A stretch of DNA of 64,000 nt from Ignavibacterium sp. (GCA_032027145.1 JAVSMP010000001.1:584903-648902), one strand, 5' to 3'; shown: positions 10,788 through 17,947, numbered from the stretch's first letter. Made by a program: numbers and translations. The notes: generated by a model not told the origin, from the letters alone.

Positions 10788-11025
10788 GTCAGTCTGAGCG
10801 GAGTCGAAGACTGAACCTTTGTTTCTTTCACGTTTCAACTTCGCTCAACGTGACAACCATTTGTCAGTCTGAGCGGAGACGAAGACTGATACCAATTATT
10901 CTCATCTTAAAGTCACGTTTCGACTTCGCTCAACGTGACTATCACCTGTCAGTCTGAGCGGAGTCGAAGACTGATACTAATTATACTTATCTTAAAGTTA
11001 CGTTTTAACTCTTGCTCAACGTAAC
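10788..11025. repeat. Tandem array (~3 units) of the 74-75 bp double-hairpin repeat, long-linker variant
   Basis: GTCAGTCTGAGCGGAG[T/A]CGAAGACTGA(C) hairpins alternate with inverted GTCACGTTTCGACTTCGCTCAACGTGAC hairpins. The linker between them is replaced by TACCAATTATTCTCATCTTAAA in two units. Lies between the pilC stop and the pilB start. Confidence 0.85.
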
Positions 11026-11041
11026 AACAAATAAAACTATA

Positions 11042-12418
11042 TCAAACCTTATCCTGCTCAAAATTAACACTAACAGATGCAGTACCCGGTGTCTTTGGTC
11101 TTACAGTTGCAGTTTCTGCTGAGACTAATGTTAACAATATCATCACCACCATTATAAACATTGCAATAAACACTTGTATGATCTCAATAAGATTTTTTAA
11201 CTTATAAACAGTTTCGGTTTCATAATAATTAGCTAACTGTAAAGCAGTGTTTTTGATAGTTCCGGTTTCTTCACCCGAGTGAAATCTTGATAAAGCAGTT
11301 TCTGTAAATACACCCGATGCTTCGAAGGCATCTGTTACACCAACTCCTTTTTTTATCATTAAAGGAATTGCAACATTTTTAATTCTATCTTCAAAATAAG
11401 CGTTTCCACTAGCTTCTGCTGCAATCCGAATTGGTTCAATACTTTCTGCTGAGCCGCTGTAAAGAGTATAAAACACTCTGCAAAAAACTTCTATAAGTGT
11501 CTTATGTATCAGTGTTCCAATTATTGGGAGCTTAAGAATGTACTGATCGATAAGAAACTTACCTTTTTCAGTTCTAGTAAACTGCCAAAGTGCAATAGGC
11601 GGAATTATACAAAACGCAGCGACTAAGTATGGATTCTCAATCAGGAAGTCACTTATCTTCAATGTAAAAGCAGTCATCGGCGGAAGCTCTACACCAAACC
11701 GTACAAATAATTTTGCTGTTTCAGGAAAAATATATCCCACATAAAATATCACTGCCAAAAAAAGTACAAACACAGTAACTAGCGGAGTAATCAGCGCACT
11801 CCGCATATTCTTTTTAAACTCTTGTCTTCGTTCTAAGAATTTTGCAGTTGCAAGATAAATCTCTGTCATATTACCGCTTTTGGATGCAAGACCAAGCATA
11901 TAAGCAGTGAACTTACCAAATATATCCTGATACTTTAAAAATGTTACCTGGCTATCGGCTCCTTTTTTCAATTCATTATTAATTTCTTTCAATGTATTCT
12001 TAAGTGCAAGATTCTGAGTATCGTTAATAAGTAAAGTAAGGATTTCTCCGTATGCTAATTTCTGTTCCAAAAGTTCGGCACTTATCTTAACAAATGTAAC
12101 TATATCAGCAACTGGTGGTTTTGCCTGAAAATCCAGCAATTTTTTGTTAACAGCTAAAGGTTTATATCCTAAACGAATGAGTGCATCTTCAACTTCTTTT
12201 TTGTTAAATGCTTTCTGTTCACCTTTAATCGGTTTATCGGTACCTTTTTGTGCTCTATAAAGAAAGGTTGACTTCTTCTCAGTGGATAAAAGCTTTAATT
12301 GATTTTTTTCTGCAAGACGCTGAATCTTTTTCTTACCTTCTATCGAAGTCTCTGCAGTAAGGGTTCCGGATATAGTCTGTCCGTTTATCTTTTGCGCTGT
12401 AAATTTATACTCTACCAT
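11042..12418 (-). CDS. pilC: Type IV pilus inner-membrane platform protein PilC/GspF family
   Basis: 458 aa; the N-terminal cytoplasmic domain resembles the PilC N-terminus (YKFTAQKINGQTISGTL...), followed by two T2SSF-like repeats with three TM segments. Confidence 0.8.
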   Translation of the reverse strand: MVEYKFTAQKINGQTISGTLTAETSIEGKKKIQRLAEKNQLKLLSTEKKSTFLYRAQKGTDKPIKGEQKAFNKKEVEDALIRLGYKPLAVNKKLLDFQAKPPVADIVTFVKISAELLEQKLAYGEILTLLINDTQNLALKNTLKEINNELKKGADSQVTFLKYQDIFGKFTAYMLGLASKSGNMTEIYLATAKFLERRQEFKKNMRSALITPLVTVFVLFLAVIFYVGYIFPETAKLFVRFGVELPPMTAFTLKISDFLIENPYLVAAFCIIPPIALWQFTRTEKGKFLIDQYILKLPIIGTLIHKTLIEVFCRVFYTLYSGSAESIEPIRIAAEASGNAYFEDRIKNVAIPLMIKKGVGVTDAFEASGVFTETALSRFHSGEETGTIKNTALQLANYYETETVYKLKNLIEIIQVFIAMFIMVVMILLTLVSAETATVRPKTPGTASVSVNFEQDKV

Positions 12419-12669
12419 TTTTTACTCGATACTTGTTAATTTTTCTTTGGACGGTTTACTCAAATTTAGTTCCAGAATTTCTGTTCGATTTTTGCTTAGA
12501 AATGAATTATTTGCCAAAAATATTTGGTAAATAAGTCCCTATAATCTAAAGTCGTGTAAAATATACTTACATTAAATATTACTATTGTTAATCTGTTTTG
12601 ATGGTAAAGGAGATAACAATCGGTGGGTACGAAAAAGATTTTGAGAGTGATAGTATGAGCTTTTCACCT

Positions 12670-15577: not shown

Positions 15578-17371
15578 TTACTTTAACTTACTTAAAACAA
15601 AGTTTAAATTTTTCCTAAATGAAATGTTATTGGGATCAATGGCAACAGCATTCTCGAAATAAATCTTTGCAGTATCTAATGCACCAATATTTACATACAA
15701 TGCACCGAGATCGTTGTTAAAAACCGGATTATCAGGAAAAATCTCTACCGCCTTCTTCATAAATTCAACTGCAGAATTGTACTGCTTAGCCTGAGTATAA
15801 TAATATGATATAGATGAAGATAAATCCTCAAATGCTTTTTTATCACTTACATTTAATTCAAGGAATTTTTTTGACCATTTGTCAGCTTTATCTGTTTGGT
15901 TTATTCTTAAATAATTTTTAACCAGATTCATATAGGTAACAGGATTATCTTTATCAATCTTCAATGATCTTTCTAATACATCATTTGCTTTTAGAAAATC
16001 GCCGGCAGACTCATAGGCAAGCGCTGCTTTCTGATAAAACTCTTGATCTATTGTTGGATTAATTCTTATAGCGTCTTCAGCATATAACGCTGCCTTTTTA
16101 TATTCTTTATTATCATAATAATAAAATCCCATACCAATATAATTGTATGGTTCATTAGGGTGATTTTTGATAACCTCGGACCAAAAAGATTCACCATTAT
16201 CATACGGTCGATTTTTAATAAATGAAAATATCAACAAATAAACTACGAGTGTAATTGAAAGAAATAATTTCAATATTCTATTAATTTTTATATTACTTAC
16301 AATAGCTGCAAATGATAAAATCAAGCCGACCATAGGCAGATATAATCGACAATCAAGATAGACAAAACTGCCATCCTTTGTTTGCAGTCTAACCATCAGA
16401 GAAGGTATTATGAAAACAACAAAAAAGATTAATCCAAAAGTAAATTTATTGTTTGTATAGAATTTTTTCCAGATTATTATTGAAAACAAAAGCAGCAAAT
16501 TGAATAATCCAATAAAAATCAGAGTATAATTTTTTATTGAAAGTGGAATGATGGCTGGCAAATAAAACAATTTTCCAAAATACTCAAATATTATGTATAA
16601 GTTTTTTAGAAAAATATATATCCCAATTTGTTCTTGAGGTTGTATCTTTACTATAAATAATCGCAGATATAAATACGCACAAGTAAGAATTCCCCAGGTT
16701 AAAACCAATTTTATTATCTTTTTTCTGTTGTTAAAAAAACTGCGGTTAAATAGATAAAGATAAATAATTAAAGAAACAGGAATAATAACTCCTATTTCTT
16801 TAGAGAACATTGCAAAAATAAATGTAATTAAATGTATAACAAGAAGATGGGTTTTCTTAGTATAAACATAGTTAATAAAGCTCAAAATACTTATAATTGA
16901 AAATAATCCAACAATTAAATCATTTCTACCTGCTATCCAAGATACTGCGTTCAAATTAATTGGGTGTATGGCAAAAATAATAACCGAAATAAACGCAACT
17001 AATTTTTGTACTTCAAACTTAAGTAAAAGACTAAAAAGCAGTAAGGAAAACATGATATGTATAAGAAGATTTGTAAGGTGATACATCATCGAAGATTGAC
17101 CAGCAATAGCAGTATCAATAATAAAACTTATCATTACCATAGGGCGGTAATAATTATCCAACAAATAACCGCTTACAAAGGTTTGGGGGATTTTTGAGAG
17201 ACTGTCTATTTTTTCATATTCAGCAAAAACAATAAGATTATCATCAAGATATGCAAAATCAAACCAGAGATTCTGAACATAAACCAGCAAGATCATACAA
17301 ACTATTATTATTTGCGGAAGATATTTGTATAATCCCAAAACCGGTTTGCCTTTTTGAGCTGATTCTTTCAT
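15578..17371 (-). CDS. GT-C membrane glycosyltransferase of the TMTC/DUF1736 type with C-terminal TPR repeats
   Basis: 597 aa. ~11 TM helices with DUF1736-like motifs (YHLTNLLIHIMFSLLLF, HPINLNAVSWIAGRNDL), then ~6 TPR-like repeats (AALAYESAGDF..., AKQYNSAVEFMKKAVEI...). Confidence 0.65.
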   Translation of the reverse strand: MKESAQKGKPVLGLYKYLPQIIIVCMILLVYVQNLWFDFAYLDDNLIVFAEYEKIDSLSKIPQTFVSGYLLDNYYRPMVMISFIIDTAIAGQSSMMYHLTNLLIHIMFSLLLFSLLLKFEVQKLVAFISVIIFAIHPINLNAVSWIAGRNDLIVGLFSIISILSFINYVYTKKTHLLVIHLITFIFAMFSKEIGVIIPVSLIIYLYLFNRSFFNNRKKIIKLVLTWGILTCAYLYLRLFIVKIQPQEQIGIYIFLKNLYIIFEYFGKLFYLPAIIPLSIKNYTLIFIGLFNLLLLFSIIIWKKFYTNNKFTFGLIFFVVFIIPSLMVRLQTKDGSFVYLDCRLYLPMVGLILSFAAIVSNIKINRILKLFLSITLVVYLLIFSFIKNRPYDNGESFWSEVIKNHPNEPYNYIGMGFYYYDNKEYKKAALYAEDAIRINPTIDQEFYQKAALAYESAGDFLKANDVLERSLKIDKDNPVTYMNLVKNYLRINQTDKADKWSKKFLELNVSDKKAFEDLSSSISYYYTQAKQYNSAVEFMKKAVEIFPDNPVFNNDLGALYVNIGALDTAKIYFENAVAIDPNNISFRKNLNFVLSKLK

Positions 17372-17511
17372 TAGCTTCCATTAATAAATAAAAAATTTTA
17401 GATGCGTCAAAATTAAGAACTAAAACCTTATTTAACCTATCAATTACTAAACCAAATTATTTATGGAATGCCTAATTGAATATCGAAGACGGGGTAAGAC
17501 AATTTGCTCCT

Positions 17512-17947
17512 GTCAGTCTGAGCGGAGACGAAGACTAACCTTTGTTTCTTTCACGTTTCGACTTCGCTCAACGTGACACCCATTTGTCAGTCTGAGCGGA
17601 GACGAAGACTGAACCTTTGTTTCCGTCACGTTTCGACTTCGCTCAACGTGACACCCATTTGTCAGTCTGAGCGGAGTCGAAGACTGAACCTTTGTTTCCG
17701 TCACGTTTCGACTTCGCTCAACGTGACACTTATTCGTCAGTCTGAGCGGAGTCGAAGACTGAACCTTTGTTTCCGTCACGTTTCGACTTCGTTCAACGTG
17801 ACACCCATTTGTCAGTCTGAGCGGAGACGAAGACTGACCTTTATTTCTGTCACATTTCGACTTCGTTCAATGCAACACCCATTTGTCAGTCTGAGCGGAG
17901 ACGAAGACTGAATTTTGTTCCTGTCGTATTTCGACTTCGCTCAACAT
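17512..17947. repeat. Array of ~6 units (74-75 bp) of the double-hairpin repeat
   Basis: Same hairpin pair as above, with linker variant AACCTTTGTTTCC giving 75-bp units; the last unit is degenerate. ORFs 17513..17779(-) and 17573..17911(+) are repeat artefacts with periodic translations. Lies in the divergent intergenic region between two TMTC-like genes. Confidence 0.9.

Follow-up and report, generated by a model that had tools for sequence, protein, structure and literature searches.

Why does the type IV pilus and glycosylation locus of an Ignavibacterium strain carry long strings of paired hairpins, and which enzyme, if any, do these hairpins serve? The strings form four tandem arrays between positions 10788 and 17947 of a 64,000-nt stretch of the genome of Ignavibacterium sp. 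(GCA_032027145.1 JAVSMP010000001.1:584903-648902), to which we refer, in its entirety, as the window. Comparison of the arrays with related loci points to a small gene encoding a GIY-YIG nuclease as the partner of the hairpins, and we consider it likely that they are recognition hairpins of the Ssn type, known from Neisseria meningitidis, and that the arrays are amplified units devoid of the nuclease gene.

Hairpin arrays and a small GIY-YIG nuclease gene

The arrays are built from two 28-nt palindromes, hairpin A, GTCAGTCTGAGCGGAG[A/T]CGAAGACTGAC, and hairpin A', GTCACGTTTCGACTTCGCTCAACGTGAC, with all copies of A on the plus strand and all copies of A' in the inverse sense. Direct reading of positions 10500-18300, Tandem Repeats Finder (TRF), and pattern searches run against shuffled sequences agree on four arrays in a single orientation, comprising approximately 41-44 hairpins in total, with periods of 74/75 and 85 bp. 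TRF reports a period of 85 bp at 10828-11028 (2.4 copies), of 74 bp at 13559-14413 (8.7 and 2.9 copies, ~90% matches, with higher-order periods of 186 and 297), and of 75 bp at 17511-17945 (5.8 copies, 92% matches). The pattern searches recover 23 copies of A and 17-19 copies of A', against 0 in the shuffles, and no copy of either hairpin was detected in the other 57 kb of the window, even when the 14-nt loop motif was allowed 1 mismatch. The arrays and two reference hairpins are as follows.

10788..11025, plus strand: array 1, in the pilB-pilC spacer; A, A', A, A', A and a degenerate A'; 85-bp period, 22-nt interior linker
12670..12782, plus strand: array 2, upstream of pilC; A and A' followed by a chimeric hairpin at 12755-12782
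13568..14412, plus strand: array 3, between a HigB-like toxin gene and the pilin terminator; 22 hairpins, 74-bp period
17512..17947, plus strand: array 4, in the divergent spacer between the genes for a tetratricopeptide repeat (TPR) membrane protein and a PMT glycosyltransferase; 11-12 hairpins, 75-bp period
13790..13817, plus strand: reference hairpin A, GTCAGTCTGAGCGGAGTCGAAGACTGAC; folding energy (dG) as single-stranded DNA (ssDNA) -5.5 kcal/mol
13828..13855, minus strand: reference hairpin A', minus-strand reading GTCACGTTGAGCGAAGTCGAAACGTGAC; dG as ssDNA -6.2 kcal/mol

The sole difference between arrays 1 and 2 and arrays 3 and 4 is the length of the linker leading from A to A', which is 10 nt in arrays 3 and 4 (GGAAACAAAG), with an 8-nt junction between units, and 22 nt in arrays 1 and 2 (TACCAATTATTCTCATCTTAAA, with the interior sequence TTTAAGATGAGAATAATTGGTA), resulting in the 85-bp period. 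An earlier note on this DNA, made from the sequence alone, had recognized the four arrays and compared their anatomy, two palindromes in opposite orientation joined in tandem by two types of linker, to bacterial interspersed mosaic elements (BIMEs); our results bear out both the arrays and the comparison, and the stems, loops and linkers are as described there, with the 22-nt linker as an addition. Degenerate copies of the hairpins are present at the array edges. The exact PilC protein of the window was found on 17 contigs from many samples, of which the long ones bear identical hairpin strings, and array 4 is identical in L144 and L150 (L numbers denote the related loci used for comparison). 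Given that independent assemblies (L121, L122, L123, L144, L149, L150) carry the same strings, the arrays are no assembly artefact. Short-read contigs terminate at the arrays; many short-read assemblies yield ~1.7-kb contigs that contain only pilC and have hairpins at both ends (L126-L130), and assembly from short reads is systematically interrupted by the arrays in this organism, which was found in more than 20 samples. A 112-aa open reading frame (ORF) with a GTG start (17573-17911, plus strand) runs wholly through array 4 and is a by-product of the repeats, not a gene.

The candidate partner gene was revealed by aligning the toxin-antitoxin region of the window with the orthologous spacer of a relative, L229, which contains an ORF of ~100 aa encoding a GIY-YIG protein. 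A tblastn search with this ORF identified nine such ORFs in 8 of 232 loci, and family hairpins bracket eight of the nine within tens of bases, with one in forward orientation 15-70 nt ahead of the start codon and, in most cases, one in reverse orientation directly behind the stop codon. These 232 loci had been chosen for containing hairpins; in the converse test, homologues were picked by protein similarity only and their contigs were fetched, and all seven (P0027, P0068, P0096, P0115, P0002, P0013, P0011; 51-84% identity) have family or family-variant hairpins beside the gene. The ORFs of this group are 101-107 aa long, with PF01541 as the only substantial domain (E 8e-18 to 3e-19), and NCBIfam yields no specific model for them. 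Our earlier clustering of neighbouring genes had returned only ABC ATPases and proteins with tails of the type IX secretion system (T9SS) as recurrent; its cut-off of at least 120 aa excluded the ~100-aa nuclease. In the relatives, the gene, hereafter ssn, sits between an A'-type hairpin in forward orientation at the left end, just upstream, and an A-type hairpin in reverse orientation at the right end. This hairpin-gene-hairpin architecture, recurring in many genomes, identifies the small GIY-YIG gene as the putative enzyme partner of the hairpin family.

A different partner had been anticipated, namely, the REP-associated Y1 tyrosine transposase (RAYT), which mobilizes families of repetitive extragenic palindromes (REPs) and BIMEs in enterobacteria and pseudomonads. 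The BIME-like anatomy, the intergenic location of the copies and the predominance of head-to-head (HH) dimers all agree with this explanation, and Y1_Tnp proteins are indeed encoded in the lineage. A tblastn search of 1.6 Mb of related loci, in which an IS200 TnpA and an E. coli RAYT served as probes only, followed by confirmation of the matches with Pfam, uncovered two such genes, at L147:8262-8693 and L026:1212-1652 (E ~1e-25). Both, however, are flanked by unrelated hairpins or arrays (GGCTAAAGCC, CTCCGTCCTAAAGGACGGAG) that are absent from the window, no Y1 gene in these 1.6 Mb adjoins the hairpin studied here, and it is the GIY-YIG genes that are bracketed instead (8/9 of the hairpin-selected ORFs and 7/7 of the protein-selected homologues). 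Likewise, Di Nocera et al. (2013; PMC3733652) found no transposase associated with the CGTC-tagged REPs, to which we return below. Mobilization of the window repeats by a RAYT is, in our assessment, highly improbable and close to refuted. The Y1 gene in L147, a locus from the same metagenome assembly as a piece 100% identical to the window, is IS200-like, lies between hsdR and hsdM of a type I restriction operon and is followed by a ~600-bp array of another hairpin family, CTCCGTCCTAAAGGACGGAG and GGGCTAAAGCCC (L147:8262-9350); this gene and its array look like a RAYT/REP system unrelated to the arrays in the window.

A hairpin family with a conserved core

When A is set beside the reverse complement of A', both show the form GTCA-NNN-TGAGCGRAGWCGAA-NNN-TGAC (28 nt; C or T as the 5' base), and their inner stems differ in a compensatory manner (GTC/GAC vs CGT/ACG), in agreement with the original perception of A' as an inverted relative of A. 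As ssDNA, a lone hairpin is of modest stability, folding with -5.5 to -6.2 kcal/mol, and the unit in its two-hairpin state folds with -12.7 kcal/mol. The minimum-energy fold of the unit is a single long A:A' hairpin (-17.7 kcal/mol as DNA, -32.4 kcal/mol as RNA, z ~-4.6), so that the double hairpin first described is one of two competing folds and not the most stable one.

The hairpin is found far beyond Ignavibacterium. In a species-representative genome collection, a generalized pattern matched at least 120 places, and the taxa among the matches listed are Bacteroidota, Ignavibacteriota, Omnitrophota, Peregrinibacteria and other members of the candidate phyla radiation (CPR), Eremiobacterota, Zixibacteria, Planctomycetota, Spirochaetota, Elusimicrobiota, and a few Proteobacteria. 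The stem covaries: at each of its three free positions, the two bases pair in 86-98% of 50 distinct sequences, compared to 40-59% after shuffling, and four to six pair types occur. Although ORFs make up 81% of the loci, 147 of 161 family copies lie outside them, and the copies favour co-directional and convergent over divergent spacers (151 vs 14). Dimers are mostly inverted heterodimers with the tags outward and with short, unrelated linkers (60 HH, 23 tail-to-tail and 3 head-to-tail (HT)), and one metagenome-assembled genome of Bacteroidota (L033) carries an alternating hairpin array with a period of 112. The search pattern imposed GTCA, leaving only the base 5' of it informative on the tag; this base is T or C in 69% of 160 copies.

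In variants from L234:1240-1500 and L238:1240-1500 and 1846-2130, TGAGCG...GAGTCGAA is kept, with an extra stem-loop between the two halves (for example, GTCACTCTGAGCG-ACACCGACGAAAGTCGGTG-GAGTCGAAGAGTGA). Because of this arrangement, the conserved halves can be suggested to form an internal motif, probably of tandem G.A/A.G pairs, below a variable apical loop. A loop variant shorter by one base, TGAGCG-NAG-CGAA, is absent from the loci examined.

Could the arrays act as RNA? As RNA, the unit forms a stable fold whichever strand is read (-32 and -30 kcal/mol, z ~-4), the family copies prefer the 3' ends of genes, as the spacer counts given above indicate, and array 3 lies just downstream of the pilin gene, all of which would suit terminators, attenuators or 3'-end stabilizers in the pilus operon, comparable to the REPs in some E. 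coli 3' untranslated regions; a weak terminator function had also been proposed in the earlier note. In the consensus terminator scan, however, no unit of the arrays was flagged, the only terminator found being that of the pilin gene itself, which precedes array 3. Across 160 family copies there is neither a T-run after the hairpin nor a conserved flank, and single copies show no orientation bias relative to the neighbouring genes (31:30). Rfam 15 yielded no match in the whole window at the gathering score and none at E<=1 within 10600-18100, and SsnA, the meningococcal nuclease discussed below, does not bind RNA (PMC11893778). We abandon the terminator proposal and regard a dedicated RNA-level role as improbable; RNA-level effects may arise as a by-product of the arrays.

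Several other identities were considered and rejected. A known RNA family is disfavoured by the negative Rfam result, and so is a hammerhead-like core (CUGA...GAA), in which the conserved G8/A9/G12 positions proved absent on inspection. The 'spacers' that a CRISPR would require are invariant linkers, and a phage origin found no support, with 0 matches in viral contigs. An array of type III toxin-antitoxin RNA (ToxI-like) upstream of the HigB-like gene is contradicted by relatives that have the array without the toxin cassette, and a dif/Xer-like 28-bp site is ruled out by the copy number and the covariation of the hairpin. A literature search by the literal sequence returned two hits, neither of them relevant.

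Relation to Ssn nucleases and other repeat systems

SsnA of N. meningitidis (94 aa, a single GIY-YIG domain) binds its target hairpin, NTS (CGTCATTCCCGCGMAVGCGGGAATCYRG, which forms a subset of the dRS3 repeats), as ssDNA only; its cleavage is specific to ssDNA, falls a few bases 5' of the hairpin and affects a single strand; NTS and the Ssn-related motifs (SRMs) flank ssnA homologues in many phyla and cluster near genes for surface proteins, and transformation by NTS-containing DNA is lowered approximately five-fold (Chenal et al. 2025; PMC11893778). The same repeats appear in the 2013 study as CGTC-tagged REPs, which include Neisseria dRS3 and Rickettsia RPE-4/6, with TGTC variants, a predominance of HH heterodimers, occurrence in Chlorobi and Bacteroidetes, and large clusters in Neisseria and Wolbachia (PMC3733652).

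The element in the window belongs to this kind, which was described in 2025 and goes back to studies of 2013 and 1986. Like the NTS/SRM repeats, it is a hairpin with a defined orientation, in which a 5' [C/T]GTC tag precedes a stem starting with A; it flanks, on both sides, a single-domain GIY-YIG gene of ~94-107 aa in an insertion sequence (IS)-like unit; its gene-less copies are dispersed between genes; the family is spread across phyla; and it clusters around genes for surface structures, the Neisseria dRS3 repeats having first been described in the pilS/pilE loci. Measured against the published description of SRMs, its 28 nt fall within the range of 20-50 nt, the tag (HGTC) is 5' and oriented, the stem covaries, and the repeats flank a small nuclease homologue in the proportions reported above, with the window itself lacking the gene. 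The core, in contrast, is TGAGCG-NAGW-CGAA, with probable tandem G.A/A.G pairs and a 6-nt apical loop, compared to CCCGCG-MAV-GCGGG in the NTS/SRM repeats, and the published expression HGTCWYN(0-2)YYVSBRHN(0-5)WNVSBRGN(0-2)RNCYNB matches NTS examples but neither the window nor the family hairpins. This expression is a search heuristic derived from 29 genomes and not a functional definition; the hairpin nevertheless falls outside the catalogued SRM sequence space, and we treat it as a different sequence variant that presumably works like an SRM and whose core escapes the published consensus. Further differences are the extra stem-loop in the apical loop of some variants (L234, L238), the low copy number, with about a dozen sites instead of hundreds, and the long, regular tandem arrays of empty heterodimers. 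The proposed likeness to Ssn, whose proteins form the CDD clade cd10448 (GIY-YIG_unchar_3), is drawn here from genes and hairpins.

With the CGTC-tagged REPs, the hairpins share the CGTC/TGTC tag, an A-T pair at the stem start, the prevalence of HH and negligible number of HT dimers, the intergenic location, and the lack of a transposase. Those REPs are described as having a stem of 8-9 bp, a loop of 4-5 nt and a CCA-like unpaired 3' tail, whereas here an 8-bp Watson-Crick stem encloses a 12-nt loop or, alternatively, eight 'pairs' including two G.A enclose a 6-nt loop, and the 3' tail, GA(C), is complementary to the tag; the two were compared by description and not by consensus sequences. The resemblance to E. 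coli BIME-2 and to the REPIN-RAYT system (REPtron) consists in two hairpin types alternating in orientation, two linkers, tandem amplification, a single-copy nuclease gene flanked by repeats, gene-less inverted doublets as the dispersed form, and breaks in assemblies. The differences are a GIY-YIG nuclease instead of the HUH/Y1 transposase, a hairpin core conserved across phyla, unlike the species-specific REPs, and a much lower copy number. What is new with respect to the Ssn/CGTC kind is the core sequence, the long regular arrays, and the fact that a distant phylum again crowds a pilus locus with such repeats.

By analogy with SsnA and NTS, a mechanism can be outlined. The full unit would consist of an A'-type hairpin in forward orientation, a gene for a GIY-YIG nuclease of ~100 aa and an A-type hairpin in reverse orientation, a small, IS-like element; in the window, the gene would have been replaced by the 10-nt or 22-nt interior linker and the empty unit iterated head-to-tail across the 8-nt junction. 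The hairpins would be the cognate recognition elements of an Ssn-type nuclease, that is, SRMs equivalent to NTS in Neisseria. In ssDNA, whether incoming transforming DNA or DNA exposed during replication or repair, each hairpin would fold and be bound by the nuclease, which would then cleave only the strand bearing the hairpin, a few bases to its 5' side, and the alternating orientation would offer cut sites on both strands approximately every 37 bp. Likely consequences would be fragmentation of homologous ssDNA over the pilus and glycosylation genes, lowering allelic replacement, and use of the hairpins as points of recombination and cassette exchange. With the tags outward, cuts 5' of the end hairpins would be placed at the outer limits of the unit, one on each strand, which would be compatible with its excision. 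Nuclease activity, specificity, the effect on transformation and the mode of spread are all extrapolated from the Neisseria system; in the broad sense, the arrays are probable substrates of an ssDNA nuclease.

The pilus locus and the origin of the arrays

Pfam searches with the window ORFs agree with the gene contexts first assigned to the arrays.

8869-10662, minus strand: PilB, type IV pilus ATPase (Pfam); the pilB-pilC block spans 8869..12418
11042-12418, minus strand: PilC, platform protein (Pfam); pilB and pilC are bracketed by arrays 1 and 2
12787-13113, minus strand: helix-turn-helix antitoxin (Pfam)
13116-13532, minus strand: Gp49/HigB-like toxin (Pfam)
12783..13567, minus strand: HigB/HigA-type toxin-antitoxin cassette, between two hairpins (Pfam and comparison with relatives)
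14457..14477, minus strand: intrinsic terminator of the pilin-like gene, between that gene and array 3 (consensus scan)
14526..14936, minus strand: pilin-like ORF, 136 aa, with a hydrophobic N-terminal segment (sequence and context; no Pfam hit); this ORF and the TPR gene lie between arrays 3 and 4
15578-17371: TPR membrane protein (Pfam)
18180-21336: PMT-type glycosyltransferases (Pfam)

In relatives with 76-88% nucleotide identity, arrays occupy the same spacers, and their copy number and stem types (CTT, CAT, CAC, TCC) differ. The contig Ga0226835_1000049 (L203 and L178) has the order pilin, array of 18, pilC, array of 5, ssn, array of 11, pilB; in L229, PMT is followed by an array of 21 and TPR and, further on, by pilin, array of 13, ssn, two hairpins, pilC, array of 13, ssn, array of 9 and pilB. 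The spacer between pilC and pilB, which holds array 1 in the window, contains array-ssn-array in both L178 and L229. In the empty units of the window, the position of the gene between A' and A is filled by GGAAACAAAG in arrays 3 and 4 or by TTTAAGATGAGAATAATTGGTA in arrays 1 and 2, and a stretch of the 22-nt linker, TTAAGATGA, recurs around the start codon of the L178 gene, which weakly suggests an internal deletion of the gene. Full and empty versions are also found at two housekeeping sites: the spacer between NamZ and lysA is occupied by ssn in L240-L243 but by arrays in L187 (24 hairpins) and L151/L216, and the site beside a metallophosphoesterase gene contains ssn in L233 and arrays in L174, L193 and L172. 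The L240-L243 ssn (5001-5309) is present in the same NamZ-lysA spacer of three Ignavibacteriaceae genomes, with 79-84% protein identity to the pilus-locus copy, suggesting long vertical residence at fixed sites, as with single-copy RAYTs.

The simplest account of these pairs is that the gene was lost and the empty heterodimer was then duplicated in tandem; the higher-order TRF periods are in keeping with block duplication. The chimeric hairpin at 12755-12782 combines a 5' arm of the A type, GTCAGTC, with a 3' arm of the TCC type, GGATGAC, as at the same position in L229, which suggests recombination or gene conversion inside the conserved loop.

The toxin-antitoxin cassette is absent from the orthologous pilin-pilC spacer, which is one unbroken array in L203 and harbours a GIY-YIG gene in L229; therefore, arrays 2 and 3 of the window are a single ancestral array that was split by insertion or exchange of the cassette. 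When L203:2901-10113 was compared with window positions 15029-21834, the TPR/glycosyltransferase segment, from AspRS (aspartyl-tRNA synthetase) to the pilin gene, could not be aligned, with ~7 kb replaced in Ga0226835_1000049 between flanks that are 86-88% identical, and the pilin region itself ~77% identical. By this comparison, the segment is a probable variable surface-glycan island bounded by arrays.

The arrays had originally been thought to be restricted to the pilus/glycosyltransferase locus, and within the window they are. Among metagenome contigs, the exact A hairpin was found at 102 places, and those outside the pilus locus comprise 44 singletons, 41 doublets and ~12 arrays; this census covers those sites in the Joint Genome Institute (JGI) collection that contain one exact A copy or more. 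Arrays with the same partner stems as in the window all come from low-GC contigs of the same lineage, assigned to organisms by identity, GC content and repeat subtype, and occupy ~7 distinct sites apart from the pilus locus: the NamZ-lysA spacer, the spacer between the genes for phosphoenolpyruvate carboxykinase (PEPCK) and the metallophosphoesterase, a position downstream of prmA, one beside a pair of corrinoid-protein genes, the interval between a T9SS protein gene and a type I restriction operon, one beside an amidohydrolase gene, and one more. The pilus/glycosylation locus accounts for three or four of ~11 array sites in the lineage, a clustering that is conserved from species to species. 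The arrays are not confined to pilus genes, and the hairpin family is low-copy in this lineage, not a high-copy REP. The earlier note had reasoned that a unit scattered uniformly over hundreds of intergenic sites would be an ordinary REP family; the arrays do extend beyond the pilus genes, as in that picture, but at ~11 sites, about one third of them in the pilus locus. The clustering is explained most economically by local hopping from an ssn copy resident in the pilC-pilB spacer; by analogy with the proposal made for Neisseria, there may be a selective link to pilus or competence genes.

Several observations weigh against our favoured explanation, that the hairpins are Ssn-type recognition elements and the arrays amplified gene-less units. 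The window contains no GIY-YIG gene within its 64 kb, and this organism is not known to be naturally competent. Independent samples of the strain show an identical array structure, with no sign of ongoing activity, and the conservation of array positions between species fits old vertical insertions, possibly with no present function. None of the 577 family hairpins fits the degenerate SRM consensus, and the nearest solved relatives of the GIY-YIG ORFs are UPF0213 proteins, 1zg2 (E 5e-13) and 1ywl. The missing gene, the identity of the arrays across samples and their fixed orthologous sites, together with the degenerate copies at the array edges, would be expected if the arrays were inert, the decayed and tandemly expanded satellite of an extinct element, with no active nuclease or host function in this strain, an alternative that concerns function and not origin. 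In most of the ~42 copies, however, the hairpin cores are intact, while linkers and stems differ between species at 76-88% coding identity, suggesting turnover with conservation of the core, and the relatives keep intact nuclease genes within the same locus. We consider inertness in this strain to be less likely than not, but still a substantial possibility.

A more far-reaching possibility builds on the Ssn-type assignment. The differences between relatives in the toxin-antitoxin cassette, in the ssn genes and in the glycosyltransferase island all fall exactly at the arrays, and it is conceivable, albeit speculative and in our view rather doubtful, that the hairpins constitute a distinct, uncatalogued Ssn-type class, spread across Bacteroidota, Ignavibacteriota, CPR and others, that has been kept for a long time in Ignavibacteriaceae as fences of two-strand cut sites around the type IV pilus, pilin and glycosylation genes. 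Such fences would shield surface and competence genes from replacement by incoming ssDNA, or would serve as joints for cassette exchange. If true, they would be an independent parallel to the NTS/dRS3 clusters around the pil loci of Neisseria.

The arrays merit the attention that the earlier note claimed for them. The small GIY-YIG gene provides a candidate enzyme partner for a widespread and otherwise unexplained intergenic hairpin in Bacteroidota, Ignavibacteriota and many candidate phyla. The Ssn consensus of 2025 misses a whole sequence class, which implies that the diversity of Ssn nucleases and their hairpins, of interest as programmable ssDNA cutters, is under-counted. The natural pairs of full and empty sites bear on the origin of such repeats, by gene loss followed by tandem amplification, and the clustering of the hairpins at pilus and pilin genes, so far from Neisseria, makes the link between repeats and recombination at surface-structure loci testable by comparison.

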